Shown: positions 13,040-37,481 of the stretch, piece after piece | How positions within the stretch are numbered: the stretch's first letter is position 1 | Layout of the letters: each line of letters starts with the position of its first letter | NCBI GenBank assembly: GCA_963728565.1 | Contig: CAVSLC010000013.1 | Location: 384,001-448,000 of the forward strand | Length of the DNA stretch: 64,000 nucleotides | Direction: 5' to 3' | Origin: an uncultured delta proteobacterium | GTDB taxonomy: Bacteria; Desulfobacterota; Binatia; UBA9968 | Made by a program: the position numbers and the translations under genes | Notes under the pieces: generated by a model | What the model was told of the DNA's origin: nothing | The model's input: only the letters and a program-made list of their open reading frames with translations | The model's database searches: none

Positions 13040-13116
13040 TGGAGCGGGTGAGGAGGGTCGAACTCCCGACCTTATGCTTGGCAAGCATACGCTCTAGCCA
13101 ACTGAGCTACACCCGC
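13040..13116 (-). tRNA. tRNA-Gly (anticodon GCC)
   Basis: Reverse complement GCGGGTGTAGCTCAGTTGGCTAGAGCGTATGCTTGCCAAGCATAAGGTCGGGAGTTCGACCCTCCTCACCCGCTCCA: cloverleaf, TTCGA T-loop, encoded CCA; lies downstream of pgsA as in the classic pgsA-glyW arrangement. Confidence 0.97.
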
Positions 13117-33248: not shown

Positions 33249-33469
33249 GCTCGCCCGTTCATGCCTAGTGTTGGAACCATAGGAACCGGGCTGTTATCGC
33301 CGCATTTGCAGTCCCAAGATTTTGCTTCCAGGCGATCACCGCCTCTAAGAGGAAGGGTCCCATGAGGCACTAGTCCGCAGACCGATTGACTCGCCAACCT
33401 GGATGCGGCTAAGTTTAGCTCCGCATCATCGCCACAGGCCAATGCTTCTGAACGAGGTCGCATCGTCCG

Positions 33470-33847
33470 ATGAAGACAAAGGGCGAAATAGAGGCAGCCA
33501 TCAGTGAAGCCATGGTCGGTTTCGAAATCGACTGCATGGGCCGCGGTCCGAAAGAGGCTCGCAGTCATATCATCGAAGATTTGATACTGGTCCGGCTCAA
33601 AGGCGTGCTGACACCGGCGGAGCAACAGTTAGCCAAACGCGCCGACGGCGTGGAACTGATTAAAAAAATGCGTTCCACCTTGATTGAAAGCGCGCGGGCC
33701 CAACTTTCAACCATGATCAGCGATGTTAGCGGCGCCAAAGTTCTCGATATTCTTACGGACATCAATACGACGTCGGGGGAGCGTGTATTCATCTTCATAT
33801 TGGACGCCAATCTGGGCAGGGATCTATCGCGCAAAATAACCGCTTGA
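33470..33847 (+). CDS. DUF2294 / MpsC-family protein
   Basis: MKTKGEIEAAIS...MGRGPK...VRLKGVLTPAEQQL...DINTTSGERVFIF. Confidence 0.88.
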   Translation: MKTKGEIEAAISEAMVGFEIDCMGRGPKEARSHIIEDLILVRLKGVLTPAEQQLAKRADGVELIKKMRSTLIESARAQLSTMISDVSGAKVLDILTDINTTSGERVFIFILDANLGRDLSRKITA

Positions 33848-33872
33848 CATTTACCTGGTTCGTTATTAGCGT
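33844..33872 (+). promoter_or_regulatory. Sigma70-like promoter overlapping the DUF2294 stop codon
   Basis: TTGACA (33844-33849), 17-nt spacer, TAGCGT (33867-33872). Confidence 0.6.
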
Positions 33873-33887
33873 GTGTCTAGTTTTGCT

Positions 33888-33975
33888 GATGACCTGAGGG
33901 GCTGCTTTTGCACACGGATCGCAGCCAGTCGGGCCATAAGCCGACTTGGATGGTCACATCCCTGTCGGCTTTTTT
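33888..33975 (+). promoter_or_regulatory. Structured leader / candidate transcription attenuator
   Basis: Hairpin 1 CCTGA..GGCTGC/GCAGCC..TCGGG; terminator AAGCCGAC-GGATG-gtca-CATCC-GTCGGCTT+T; alternative AGTCGG/CCGACT pairing. Confidence 0.6.
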
Positions 33976-34034
33976 ATTGGTTGAAACAGGCCAATTGGAG
34001 GAAGCCCCTATGAGGGCGTCTCGATCAAAGGTGG

Positions 34035-34070
34035 GCCAGTCTAACCCGATGGGGAGAGGCTGGCTTTTTT
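34035..34070 (+). terminator. Second intrinsic terminator-like hairpin just upstream of the permease RBS
   Basis: GCCAGTCT...AGGCTGGC followed by T6. Confidence 0.55.
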
Positions 34071-34090
34071 CTTGAAAGGAGGGACAGACA

Positions 34091-34942
34091 ATGGCTGATC
34101 AGAATCCCGCGGCAGAAGAGGTCTTACTCGACATCCGCGTAGCAGAGGCTTCAGGAGCTTATAAGTTTTACCTGAACAACGAGAAGAAAATTCTCGGGAC
34201 CGCCTCCGTGGCTATATTCCTGACTGTCTGGGAATTAGTCGGTAACACGTTACAGCTAATCAATCCCATGTTCATGAGCGCGCCGTCACTCATATGGAAG
34301 GCCGCCGTGCAACTGTTCACCTCGGGAGAGATATACAACGATCTCCGGGTTAGCGGCATTGAGTTCGCCTGGGGATACGTGCTCTCGGTGATCGTCGGCG
34401 TTCCCTTCGGCATCGCATGTGGCTGGTATAAAAAAATGGCGTACATCTTCGATCCGTTCATTAATGCGATGAACGCGACCCCGCGCGTCGCCCTCCTACC
34501 GCTGGTTATCATCTGGTTGGGCATCGGCATACTCTCGAAGGTGGGCATTATTTTTCTCGGCGCGGTCTTTCCGATCCTGATCAATGCGCGTGACGGGGTA
34601 AAGACCACTCCATACAACCTGCTTACGGCCGCAAAGAGCTTCGGCGCTTCGGAATGGCAGATATTCAGAAGTGTCGTGCTGCCGTCGACTTTGCCATTTA
34701 TCCTTACCGGCTTGAGGCTCGGGGTCGGCAGGGCCTTGATCGGTGTCATGGTCGGAGAGCTTTATGCCGCTACCGCTGGCATCGGCTTTATGATTACTGT
34801 GGCGGGAGCTACTTTCCAGACCGATAAAGTCTTTGTCGGCGTCCTGATCTTCGCCATCACCGGCATGATCTCCATGGAGCTGCTAACCAAATTGGAGGCT
34901 CGCTTCGAGAAGTGGCGCCCGAAAGTCGGGGCGGCAGCATAG
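34091..34942 (+). CDS. ABC transporter permease, NitT/TauT (nitrate/sulfonate/bicarbonate) family
   Basis: PRVALLPLVIIWLGIG, EAA-like AAKSFGASEWQIFRSVVLP, GELYAATAGIGF; AAGGAGG RBS. Confidence 0.9.
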   Translation: MADQNPAAEEVLLDIRVAEASGAYKFYLNNEKKILGTASVAIFLTVWELVGNTLQLINPMFMSAPSLIWKAAVQLFTSGEIYNDLRVSGIEFAWGYVLSVIVGVPFGIACGWYKKMAYIFDPFINAMNATPRVALLPLVIIWLGIGILSKVGIIFLGAVFPILINARDGVKTTPYNLLTAAKSFGASEWQIFRSVVLPSTLPFILTGLRLGVGRALIGVMVGELYAATAGIGFMITVAGATFQTDKVFVGVLIFAITGMISMELLTKLEARFEKWRPKVGAAA

Positions 34943-34995
34943 TCAGTATCCAGCGCCTCATTAAAAAGAGAAGTTCCCAGATATTTCCGCACAAC

Positions 34996-35028
34996 AAGCC
35001 GATTACCTCTCCAGGTAATCGGCTTTTT
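34996..35028 (+). terminator. Intrinsic terminator after the permease
   Basis: AAGCCGATTACC-tctcca-GGTAATCGGCTT followed by a T-run. Confidence 0.75.
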
Positions 35029-35221
35029 CTTTGGCGATGCTGTCCCCGCTTTTTAAGCTCGAATAACCCTAACAGTCCCTTCGTTTCGAAACTCTTTGCT
35101 TGGCTATCATAAGTTTTTGTACAGCCCTCTTTCTTATAGTCCTTGCCCGGCCTCGAGAAACCACGTATATACCTGCGCAGCTTGAAGGCATAAACGATCT
35201 TCATCGGGAAGGAACACGAAA

Positions 35222-35503
35222 ATGCAACATAAATATAAATCGTATAACATTGTGATCACGAGCTGGGCCAATCTTAACCCGGACGGATTTAGACCGGAAT
35301 ATCGAATCAGTATGAACACTGCTAGTCTCTCCCAAAGTTTAAAAATAAACCTGACGTTTGCTACAAGAAGAGAGGCTGAAGATTACGCGCTCCAAGTCGC
35401 CAAAAAATGGATCGACGAGCAAGGATCCAATCATTCATCGACATTGATCGAAAAGGTCGGTGACAAAAGTCGAAAGCCTCTCAAGAAAGACTCCGTCTTC
35501 TAA
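35222..35503 (+). CDS. Small hypothetical protein (F.T...A....AKKWIDE family)
   Basis: AAGGA RBS; YKSYNI...TFATRREAEDYALQVAKKWIDE. Confidence 0.65.
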   Translation: MQHKYKSYNIVITSWANLNPDGFRPEYRISMNTASLSQSLKINLTFATRREAEDYALQVAKKWIDEQGSNHSSTLIEKVGDKSRKPLKKDSVF

Positions 35504-35831
35504 CGTTAAATCGAGCCTGTCCCGGGTCATCCGACATATGACATCGCGCGAAGCAACACATCGTGGCAGAAATTGTTTTGAATTGGGTACACAAACGCGT
35601 CCGCACTAAAGAGAGACATCCTCTTAGCGCACAACGAGTTGACGTCTCCCCACATCTCACTCCAGTATGAAACCATCCCGGCTCAGCCTAGTCCCCAAAC
35701 GCAAGCCTGCGCTCACCCCCGACAACTAAATATTCTTGACCCGCTTATCTCCAGTCGTTTACTCTTAAGGCCGAAGCCGCGGGTACATCGTACGAGATTT
35801 GCCTACCACCCGTTTTATTCACGGAGAACCG

Positions 35832-37481
35832 ATGGCCAAGAACATTGTGATCTGCTCGGACGGAACTGGAAACTCCGCAGTTAAGGACCGCGGCACGAAT
35901 GTATTCAGGATCTTTGAGTCTATCGATCTCAATGGGCACCGACTTAACCCGAAGCTGGATCCGCAGGTGCCGATCTACGACGATGGCGTCGGCACGGAAG
36001 ATTTCAGGCCGCTCAAAATTTTTGCCGGAATAACCGGGTGGGGTTTAAGCCGAAATGTCAAGCAACTGTACAAGGAGCTATGCCGTATCTATGATCCTGG
36101 CGATAAAATATTCTTGTTCGGCTTTAGCCGCGGCGCTTTCACGGTCCGTAGCCTGGTGGGGCTCATCGTCCGATGCGGGATTATCGATGCACAGAAGCAA
36201 CCTACCGCAGAAGCTTTCGACGATTGCGTGAATAGAGCCTACAAGGCTTACCGCAGTTGTTACCGAACGGCCTTGATGCGACTGCTGCGCGGCGACGCTA
36301 GCGCTGCCGCGACCGATGAATTTAGAATCAAATACTGCCACCCGCAGCAAACCAAGATCCATTTCATCGGCGTTTGGGATACCGTCGACGCGGTCGGGAT
36401 GCCTTTCCACACCAGCGATTTCATCAATGCGGTGATCTATCGATTCAAGTTTCCCAATCAAAGGCTAAGCGAGCAGGTCGACCACGCCTACCATGCGTTG
36501 GCTGTTGACGATGACCGTCATTCGTTCCACCCGCTGCTCTGGGATCAACGGGCATCCAGCCCGGGCAAATCGCAAAAGATCGAGCAGGTGTGGTTTGCCG
36601 GCGCCCATGCCAATGTTGGCGGAGGTTACCCGAAGCAAGGCTTGTCACTCACGGCAATGCACTGGTTGATGACCAAGGCTCAAAACGCCGGGCTGCGATT
36701 TATCCCTGACGAGTACGAATACTATCGAGATCACGCCAACGTTGACGACAAACTTTATGATCCCCGCGCCGGCTTAGGCGTTTTCTACCGCTGGAAACCG
36801 CGCGATATCGGGAAGCTCTGTCATGATAATGGGGTGACCCCCGCGATCCATCTGAGCGTGATGGAACGGATCGCGCACGGAACCGAGGACTACAGTCCGG
36901 GAAATCTGCCACCCGGTGCGAGGATTGTTATCACGCCAGCCAATGACCAGGGAGAAGACGCGACCGCGACGACCCGGGCGCTCGCGGCAGAAATGGTATT
37001 GAAATCTGCCCACGCAAACACCCAAAGCTCCTTGTTGAATCGTGTCCGGGGCACCATCAGCGTCGGACGGCTCTCTTATTATGTTTACTTGTCGTCCTGC
37101 GTGGCCGCGTTGATCGCCGCCTCGGGCGTGCTTGATGACCCTTCGAGGACCGGCATCGGGTCAATCACCAAGGGGGTAGCTGTCTTCCTGGTAAATTTAG
37201 TGACATCACCGTTCGCCACGCTCTATCAGGTAGGAAAAAACTTCTCAGGTGACGTCATCCGGGTTGCTTGGATAGCGAGCGGCTTCCTCATCGCTTACCT
37301 GCTGATGAAGATCACCGATAGACGGATGAGCGCAACATTTTCCAGGTTCTGGTTCGAACAACAGAAGCATTTACGAGTCGCGCTGAAGCAGGCGCGTCAG
37401 GAGGCACACGAAATCATCTCAGCCGGAGTTTCTTCGCGGGAGCCGGCTACGAATCGTGCCGACAAAGAAGCCAGGAATTAA
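35832..37481 (+). CDS. DUF2235 (Tle1-like alpha/beta hydrolase/phospholipase) with C-terminal TM helices
   Basis: KNIVICSDGTGN, YDDGVGT, FGFSRGAFTVR, GVWDTV, VWFAGAHANVGGG; GGAG RBS. Confidence 0.88.
   Translation: MAKNIVICSDGTGNSAVKDRGTNVFRIFESIDLNGHRLNPKLDPQVPIYDDGVGTEDFRPLKIFAGITGWGLSRNVKQLYKELCRIYDPGDKIFLFGFSRGAFTVRSLVGLIVRCGIIDAQKQPTAEAFDDCVNRAYKAYRSCYRTALMRLLRGDASAAATDEFRIKYCHPQQTKIHFIGVWDTVDAVGMPFHTSDFINAVIYRFKFPNQRLSEQVDHAYHALAVDDDRHSFHPLLWDQRASSPGKSQKIEQVWFAGAHANVGGGYPKQGLSLTAMHWLMTKAQNAGLRFIPDEYEYYRDHANVDDKLYDPRAGLGVFYRWKPRDIGKLCHDNGVTPAIHLSVMERIAHGTEDYSPGNLPPGARIVITPANDQGEDATATTRALAAEMVLKSAHANTQSSLLNRVRGTISVGRLSYYVYLSSCVAALIAASGVLDDPSRTGIGSITKGVAVFLVNLVTSPFATLYQVGKNFSGDVIRVAWIASGFLIAYLLMKITDRRMSATFSRFWFEQQKHLRVALKQARQEAHEIISAGVSSREPATNRADKEARN

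Follow-up and report, generated by a model that had tools for sequence, protein, structure and literature searches.

HutP binds single-stranded UAG repeats. PyrR, which has a phosphoribosyltransferase fold, promotes termination upon binding, and in pyr operons the regulator gene comes first in the unit. Tandem switches are also known among riboswitches. Here we compare with these systems a leader RNA from a 64,000-nucleotide (nt) stretch of DNA of an uncultured delta proteobacterium. The whole stretch is referred to as the window; coordinates are positions within it, and the genome to which it belongs is 80.55% complete. The leader lies between a gene of the DUF2294/MpsC family and a gene for an orphan ABC permease. 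Judged by its sequence and conservation, it appears to be an uncatalogued, conserved tandem terminator switch, and it very probably acts as a cis-acting attenuator.

Two hairpin and terminator modules in the leader

An earlier note on this DNA, made from the sequence alone, had described a promoter at the end of the DUF2294 gene and a leader of four segments with one hairpin and one terminator. Its coordinates were correct: the DUF2294 stop codon (TGA, 33845-47) falls within the TTGACA (33844-49) of TTGACA-17 nt-TAGCGT, and hairpin 1 and the terminator with its T6 run lie where they had been placed. The promoter and a switchable terminator leader were retained, but not the single-module design, as the leader contains two hairpin-plus-terminator modules in series, the second at 33976-34070. 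In the window, helix P1 of module 1 is formed by CCTGA (33893-97) and TCGGG (33929-33) and helix P2 by GGCTGC (33900-05) and GCAGCC (33921-26). The purine loop of this module reads GG/AG in the window and AG/AG in most copies. Terminator 1 pairs AAGCCGAC (33938-45) with GTCGGCTT, followed by T6 at 33970-75. Both predicted intrinsic terminators are G+C-rich stem-loops, with stems at 33938-33969 and 34033-34064 and U6 after each; a simple terminator scanner omitted the two because their stems are interrupted.

Folding supported this layout. The 106 nt from 33875 fold as hairpin 1 plus terminator at -44.9 kcal/mol (z = -4.48), and the entire 221-nt leader folds at -94.5 kcal/mol (z = -4.34). In either case, none of 200 shuffles was as good.

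Covariance models were built for module 1 (R1) and module 2 (R2) and used with thresholds of E ≤ 1e-7 and E ≤ 1e-9, giving 92 R1 matches and 70 R2 matches across 84 loci. Alignments and counts include row L011 (with L030) from genome G012, on which no claim rests. Across the 88 distinct module-1 sequences, 96.6% of cells were paired and 14 of 21 pairs showed two-sided changes, while a control with the partner slid by 1-3 columns paired only 11-51%. Module 2 (62 distinct sequences) gave 94.8% of cells paired and two-sided changes in 11 of 22 pairs, with slid controls far lower. P1 and P2 covary, exchanging GC and AU in 30 rows and UA and CG in 35 rows, and so does the module-2 hairpin. Terminator 1 was paired in 98.5% of cells; its outer stem GCCGAC/GUCGGC is near-invariant in the 88 distinct sequences and its inner stem covaries. 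The outer stem of terminator 2 was paired in 96.4% of cells, with 4 of 9 pairs changed on both sides.

Several positions are conserved beyond the needs of pairing. These are G11, A12, U13 and U73, the 3'-side AG of the module-1 loop (84 and 88 of 88), the AU.RGCC motif, the RGCC that opens every terminator and the terminator strand GCCGAC. Such conservation holds over G+C contents from 34% to 66%, an invariance which fits recognition by a factor. Each model also matches the other module weakly (20-29 bits), and the modules are therefore probably diverged copies of one design. In the high-G+C relatives at L139, L138 and L146-L148 (family f28/f67 loci), a second module of their own follows terminator 1 (CCCAACGGCGCAAGGG...CCCGACGGCCGG...), barely detected by R2. 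These lineage-specific second modules suggest that the tandem arrangement is a general feature with lineage-specific sequence.

The earlier note had recognised no known riboswitch, and database scans agree. A scan of the whole window against Rfam 15 returned a single match, a tRNA at 13043-13116. For 33700-34200 at E ≤ 10, the two matches (E 4.7 and 5.5) were at chance level and fell far short of their gathering scores. Twenty related loci gave as sole match a tmRNA elsewhere in L137, a low-G+C relative. This tmRNA gene (L137:1955-2306, minus strand; 210 bits) lies directly 5' of DUF2294, and the leader-like element there precedes a monomeric isocitrate dehydrogenase. Among the open-access literature listings examined, none described a DUF2294-linked RNA or an RNA-binding MpsC/YbcI.

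The exact module-1 pattern was found in 19 stretches among 185,579 species genomes, labelled as metagenome-assembled genomes of Candidatus Binatia bacterium or Deltaproteobacteria bacterium, plus one Nitrospirae bacterium and one Syntrophobacteraceae. A looser pattern, with the closing run one T shorter, occurred in 73 metagenome contigs. A second R1 match in the window's own genome (17.7 bits) lies inside an open reading frame (ORF) of more than 1000 residues and was taken as chance. Among soil RNA data, 24 libraries from 17 studies contained 8-22% of the words sampled from window positions 33300-35100. All contigs in the four runs examined (X1, X2, X4 and X10) were 90-99% identical to the window and covered parts of DUF2294, leader and permease. 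Such contigs are uninformative about starts, ends and levels, and nothing follows from parts left uncovered. The contig that bridges terminator 1 is 193 nt long and covers just the two-module leader, 33892-34082. In several of the library contigs, the permease was covered at greater contig depth than DUF2294.

The leader appears to be driven by its own sigma-70-type promoter overlapping the end of the DUF2294 gene. Visible conservation extends over the 330 nt 3' of DUF2294 genes and includes module 1, module 2 at most loci and, ahead of them, a -10 hexamer and the TTGAC that overlaps the stop codon. The TGA of the gene forms part of TTGAC at 62 of 67 loci. Of 78 distinct upstream regions, 68 contain TTGAC(T/A/G), and 60 show the best spacing, 17 nt to a -10 starting with TA; a strict rule (TTGAC, 16-18 nt, TAnnnT/A) was satisfied by 54 of the 78. 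The spacer sequence is variable among loci, and the same promoter precedes leader copies that lack an upstream DUF2294 (e.g. L052). The sequence between DUF2294 and the leader contains no terminator, so DUF2294 transcripts should also reach terminator 1. The locus alignment revealed no RNA element 5' of DUF2294, where the sequence is unconserved across the family.

Linkage of the leader to DUF2294 and to downstream genes

The DUF2294 protein matches PF10057 (MpsC) with 122.4 bits against a cut-off of 23 (E 1.2e-35), its residues 3-112 aligning to positions 1-110 of the 111-position profile. A single copy was found in this genome; Bacillus subtilis, used as a control, has a PF10057 gene as well. 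An AlphaFold2 model built with 61 aligned homologues is a confident alpha+beta structure (mean pLDDT 96.5). A homodimer prediction scored 0.25 against a mark of 0.42 and was counted for neither side. Searching PDB sequences with the protein returned nothing relevant.

A DUF2294 ORF ends just 5' of 67 of the 75 module-1 copies where this could be judged; a further seven copies have no room for it on their contig (82 distinct copies, by pattern). Protein searches found DUF2294 homologues in 21 of 61 related genomes, all from the window's family. Besides the window, this family has the gene in 20 of 36 genomes, and the sister families in 0 of 5 and 0 of 19. The RNA was found in 18 of the 61 relatives, all of them among the 21 carriers of the gene, and in 0 of 40 genomes without it. 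Of the three carriers without the RNA, two (G032 and G035) have contigs that end at or right after the gene, and the third (G014, locus L024) has a divergent module 1 and an intact module 2. One genome, G021, has one RNA copy on a contig without DUF2294 and the gene on another contig, which is consistent with a trans-acting factor.

The linkage extends beyond the family. In the wider phylum DUF2294 is rare: a sample of 400 genomes contained it in 13, the window's own genome not counted. At 13 DUF2294 loci from 12 genomes of other families, with G+C contents from 34% to 66%, 11 had an R1 match at E < 0.01 within approximately 400 nt (50.2 to 17.6 bits), one was marginal (E 1.1) and one had none. 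The RNA is downstream on the same strand in 10 of these loci and divergent in L146. In L041, a Nitrospirae-labelled contig, the order is RNA-DUF-DUF-RNA. Given these differing layouts, the association of RNA and DUF2294 is not a single inherited layout. The earlier note had anticipated a conserved terminator architecture near other DUF2294 loci, and this was borne out, with covariation, both in the family and outside it. As the genes are tied to the RNA within and beyond the family, DUF2294 is the obvious candidate for a trans-acting partner. We also considered that a divergent DUF2294 paralogue (type B) serves module 2. This was rejected, as the present genome (80.55% complete) has module 2 and only one DUF2294 gene.

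Leader copies consistently precede same-strand genes, and some loci contain several copies, each ahead of a gene. Such copies, the conserved promoter with its variable spacer, a module 2 reachable only by read-through and the ribosome-binding site and gene behind terminator 2 mark the RNA as a leader rather than simply a 3' end. The first recognisable gene behind 82 copies was an orphan permease (36), a membrane peptide of approximately 35 residues (12), a membrane protein of approximately 190 residues without a Pfam match (7), a type-B DUF2294 (3), another small membrane peptide (3) or PurC (1), with nothing recognisable or a contig end in 20. Further along these units are HtpX (Peptidase_M48), the ribosome hibernation factor HPF (Ribosomal_S30AE), TerC and Tmemb_14. 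In other families, the gene behind the element encodes Usp, HtpX, monomeric isocitrate dehydrogenase, DUF4914 or type-B DUF2294. The downstream genes have an envelope and stationary-phase stress flavour rather than an inorganic-carbon one.

The permease of the window scores below equivalog cut-offs for TauC (154 bits; cut-off 342), SaoP (147; 295) and SsuC (117; 347). No gene for an ATPase or binding protein was found beside it in the window, and 252 downstream ORFs of related loci contained no binding protein and no full ABC ATPase. At L011, L012, L016, L017, L022 and L026, a copy of the orphan-permease family ends just 5' of DUF2294, with a terminator after it. The permease may therefore sit on either side of the DUF2294-RNA unit.

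These gene contents do not support the link to CO2 or bicarbonate proposed in the earlier note. A study of Staphylococcus aureus reports mpsC to be dispensable for MpsAB function and not to be collocated with mpsAB outside staphylococci (PMC6689103). In the present genome, DUF2294 does not lie beside mpsA/dabB and mpsB/dabA, the arrangement that would place it in an MpsABC/DabAB system. DabA (DUF2309, PF10070; 912 bits) is encoded on contig C6 (63096-66080, minus strand; locus L150) and DUF2294 on contig C13. The DabA locus has no leader, with no R1 match better than E 0.99. At L076:3-233 (minus strand), the element is followed by a hydrophobic N-terminus whose 77 residues have no Pfam match and which by eye may belong to a NuoL/MpsA-like membrane protein. 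It would then be the sole indication of a link to MpsA in the analysis.

Predicted competing folds and rival explanations

The energetics of module 1 favour termination. In the window, the terminator form has a predicted energy of -44.7 kcal/mol compared with -31.4 kcal/mol for the alternative form, calculated with the 3' strand of the terminator blocked. As the terminator form is more stable, the default state would be OFF. To represent the RNA as polymerase would see it, we folded transcripts truncated inside the terminator loop. Truncated module 1 forms one long rod, consisting of a base helix, a GAU/AUA extension, P1, a 2x2 purine loop and P2. The CCGAC strand of the terminator pairs with the 5' leader (GGUUUG, AGUCUG; AGUU..GCU in the window) in 69 of 86 sequences. 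In the extension, the pair at columns 13-72 is UA in 65, UG in 19 and CG in 2, and is C-G in copies from other families. For truncated module 2, a rod was predicted in 53 of 62 sequences. It has a helix of GGYAGGCC and GGCAGGCC interrupted by an AG/AG loop, and its 5' flank is base-paired to CCAGCU, which forms the 5' strand of terminator 2. In the window's own truncated module 2, the 5' flank and GGCC pair with this strand. Seven of the 12 divergent copies folded from other families (L149 left out) also pair the first bases of the terminator strand with the 5' leader.

Two alternatives for these regions were discarded. A module-2 base helix between UAGC-like and GCUA-like flanks was dropped, as hand-built variants were inconsistent between clades and the folded rod was preferred. 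A leader peptide was rejected as well. The window contains AUG-ACC-UGA at 33889-97, but the AUG varies among copies (column 14: G 56, A 15, C 14; AUA, AUC and others), and no ribosome-binding site precedes the window AUG at 33889.

Conservation beyond pairing, together with the DUF2294 linkage, makes a protein that clamps the rods the most economical reading. The leader would then be two switches in series, forming a cis-acting transcription attenuator in which each module has two folds. In the rod form, the base of the hairpin would take up the first bases of the terminator 5' strand; in the terminator form, a shorter hairpin would stand beside a strong intrinsic terminator. Left to itself, the RNA would terminate and the unit would be OFF. 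DUF2294, probably on a stress-related signal, would bind and hold the rods, allowing RNA polymerase to pass both terminators into the orphan permease gene. Elsewhere, read-through would reach small membrane proteins, HtpX, HPF, TerC, Usp and the second type of DUF2294. Module 2 starts no more than approximately 25 nt past terminator 1 and would therefore be made only by read-through. Serial terminators would then provide tight, two-step control. Of this model, RNA binding by DUF2294, the ON-when-bound direction and the signal are the parts that we infer. That the leader terminates by default, that rod hairpins compete with the terminators and that DUF2294 holds the rods to cause antitermination is, in our judgement, somewhat probable. 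A wider proposal, plausible and a little more doubtful, is that DUF2294/MpsC is the first member of a new class of RNA-binding antiterminators gated by a signal. Its target would be a rod with purine-purine internal loops set against an RGCC-type terminator, present in one to several leaders per genome (two in series here). In many bacterial phyla, the class would control a regulon for envelope and stationary-phase stress (HtpX, HPF, Usp, TerC, the orphan permease and small membrane proteins; elsewhere isocitrate dehydrogenase and DUF4914).

Several observations weigh against antitermination by DUF2294. For the pairings that define the switch (P0 and P0'), two-sided covariation is slight or absent, and energy models are their main support. 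Because their bases are near-invariant, the base helices are supported by these models and by recurrence across families, not by covariation. RNA binding by DUF2294 is suggested by genomic association; the earlier note had named the protein as the trans-acting, possibly RNA-binding partner, and it is the tight linkage in this claim that the data bear out. The linkage itself is confounded by physical proximity and shared descent, since gain and loss affect the locus as a whole (e.g. in 4 of 7 genomes of the genus), and the 18 co-occurrences are therefore not independent evidence. Eight of the 75 module-1 copies have no upstream DUF2294. Several of these eight have DUF2294 genes elsewhere on the contig, and in some (L072, L081) a type-B paralogue lies directly downstream. 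Fold searches with Foldseek (best E 0.012) and VIA (best Z 6.7) returned weak, mixed matches in the common range (uL23, H-NOX, Bet3/V4R and an FtsK domain), and no fold was assigned. A consensus promoter scan of the window called no promoter at the leader, where TAGCGT agrees with TATAAT at only three of six positions, a weak -10; a transcription start near 33879 is accordingly one that we infer. The role of the terminators could also be just to end the DUF2294 transcript.

The rods could instead be aptamers for a small molecule or ion (e.g. a cation, a metal or a stress alarmone), whose binding would stabilise the base helix and block termination, with DUF2294 merely co-located or co-regulated in a stress island. 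The architecture resembles terminator-coupled ON riboswitches with rod-like aptamers, in which purine-rich internal loops and a base helix overlapping the terminator are combined, and tandem arrays are familiar from that group. The downstream genes are mostly for membrane or transport proteins, including TerC and an ORF at L024 that by eye resembles a cation antiporter, and behind some copies a DUF2294 paralogue is itself the regulated gene. However, the Rfam scans gave the leader no match at the gathering score and none above chance level at E ≤ 10, and only a very small unpaired core is conserved. Also left unexplained by a riboswitch are the position of type-A DUF2294 upstream of the promoter of the RNA, outside its control, in 67 of 75 copies, and the finding that none of the 61 relatives had the RNA but lacked DUF2294. 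We consider this explanation unlikely.

Protein binding could also act in the opposite direction, as with PyrR. DUF2294 would bind hairpin 1 (P1/P2) as an anti-antiterminator and cause termination, while AGUCGG:CCGACU would form without the protein and permit read-through. The earlier note had cast this pairing as the antiterminator. Its complementarity is real (AGTCGG at 33927-32 and CCGACT at 33941-46), at least 85 of 88 sequences could form the five core pairs GUCGG:CCGAC, no part is better conserved than hairpin 1, which adjoins the terminator, and a regulator gene at the head of the unit is the order of pyr operons. The antiterminator role is possible but less favoured: AGUCGG:CCGACU shows no covariation, with observed values equal to those of shuffles, the sixth pair fails in 51 of 88 and module 2 has no equivalent. 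Pairing of CCGAC with the P1 3' strand was predicted in only 3 of 86 truncated transcripts (compared with the 69 above for the 5' leader) and in 0 of the 12 divergent copies. An antiterminator of 5 bp would be far less stable than hairpin 1, which is also the first to form, so protein-free read-through would be hard to obtain. These points make a PyrR-like mechanism improbable. A further pairing proposed in the earlier note, between TGACC (33890-94) and GGTCA (33952-56) at the terminator loop, is likewise complementary in the window, but apart from the window only its two nearest relatives share it (3 of 86 sequences).

Least probable, and in our view very unlikely, is that there is no switch. 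Terminator 1 would then end the DUF2294 transcript or a stable small RNA of approximately 100-200 nt from the stop-codon promoter, with the permease expressed from its own unseen promoter or by leak-through. Both terminators are strong, no terminator separates DUF2294 from the leader, and the 193-nt soil RNA contig spanning just 33892-34082 is a weak hint in this direction, being a contig rather than reads. Against this, there is no room for a promoter for module 2, nor in the 20 nt between terminator 2 and the ribosome-binding site; the copies consistently stand ahead of same-strand genes; and plain terminators do not hold a stem sequence invariant over G+C contents of 34-66%.

Locus features and comparison with known systems

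The features of the locus are collected in Table 1. Downstream of the permease, a 93-residue ORF (35222-35503, plus strand) has no Pfam match; its homologues lie behind the permease in five related loci (family F6). Two genes past the permease (35799-37481, plus strand) is a 560-residue protein with an N-terminal phospholipase domain like Tle1 of the type VI secretion system (DUF2235; E 5.9e-74) and a hydrophobic C-terminal part.

Table 1. Features of the DUF2294 leader locus in window coordinates
Feature	Position	Strand	Basis
Possible DUF2294 promoter, TTGACT-18 nt-TAAGTT	33386..33415	+	Sequence reading; weak; conserved only in the five closest loci (L005-L008, L013)
DUF2294/MpsC gene, 125 residues, candidate trans-acting factor	33470..33847	+	Pfam PF10057
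Leader promoter, TTGACA / 17-nt spacer / TAGCGT	33844..33872	+	-35 at 33844-49; -10 at 33867-72
Predicted module 1 rod: 5' leader (AGUU..GCU), GAU/AUA extension, P1, 2x2 purine loop, P2 with variable tip	33879..33937	+	R1 match 33878-33975, 95.3 bits
Predicted terminator 1: AAGCCGAC..GGAUG-GUCA-CAUCC..GUCGGCUU + U6	33938..33975	+	Sequence, fold
Predicted module 2 rod: 5' flank, CAGGCC, hairpin GGAAGCCC/GGGCGUCU (34000-34021), 3' flank	33976..34032	+	R2 match 33970-34070, 88.1 bits
Predicted terminator 2: GGGCCAGUC..ACCC-GAU-GGGG..GGCUGGC + U6	34033..34070	+	Sequence, fold
AGGAGG ribosome-binding site, then orphan TauC/SsuC-like ABC permease (34091-34942, 283 residues)	34078..34942	+	BPD_transp_1, E 2.9e-29
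Intrinsic terminator ending the permease unit	34996..35035 (also placed at 34996-35025)	+	Terminator scan: 13-pair stem, then T run

If antitermination by DUF2294 is correct, a widespread protein family without a function, mislabelled as part of a Na+/bicarbonate transporter, would become a gene regulator. An uncatalogued RNA family would join the few protein-dependent terminator switches (HutP, TRAP, PyrR, LicT and ANTAR), and a stress regulon would be defined for soil and groundwater lineages that are represented by metagenome-assembled genomes alone. Two terminators in series would be a natural case of tight two-step control. A 125-residue protein and a 200-nt RNA make the question directly testable.

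Among known systems, the hut operon of Bacillus subtilis shares a small regulator gene directly 5' of a terminator-bearing leader. As proposed here, the regulator would likewise act on the nascent RNA to give read-through, probably activated by a ligand. However, the protein encoded in the window belongs by Pfam to PF10057/MpsC only, and the matches listed by the fold searches did not include HutP. Instead of a series of UAG repeats, the RNA conserves a rod-shaped hairpin with purine loops; by eye, UAG triplets are frequent in some clades and replaced in others. The leader also has its own promoter at the stop codon of the regulator gene and two serial terminators. The pyr attenuators share a regulator that heads the unit, serial attenuators and competition between hairpin, antiterminator and terminator, but energy models favour protein-dependent read-through for the present RNA. 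Rod-aptamer ON riboswitches (the Na+ DUF1646 motif and the Li+ nhaA-I motif) share a rod hairpin with conserved internal loops, a base helix overlapping the terminator and membrane or ion genes downstream. In contrast to these, the present RNA has no Rfam counterpart even at the relaxed threshold and is strictly linked to one protein family.

A further parallel is with BglG, SacY, LicT and GlcT and their ribonucleic antiterminator (RAT) hairpins. Common to both are a protein-stabilised hairpin overlapping the 5' half of the terminator (predicted here), termination by default and one protein serving several leaders. DUF2294 differs in having no CAT or PRD domain, its RNA is longer and has two internal purine loops, and no phosphotransferase system genes are nearby. 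By this analogy, the DUF2294 leader would work like the BglG/LicT-RAT systems without being a member of them.

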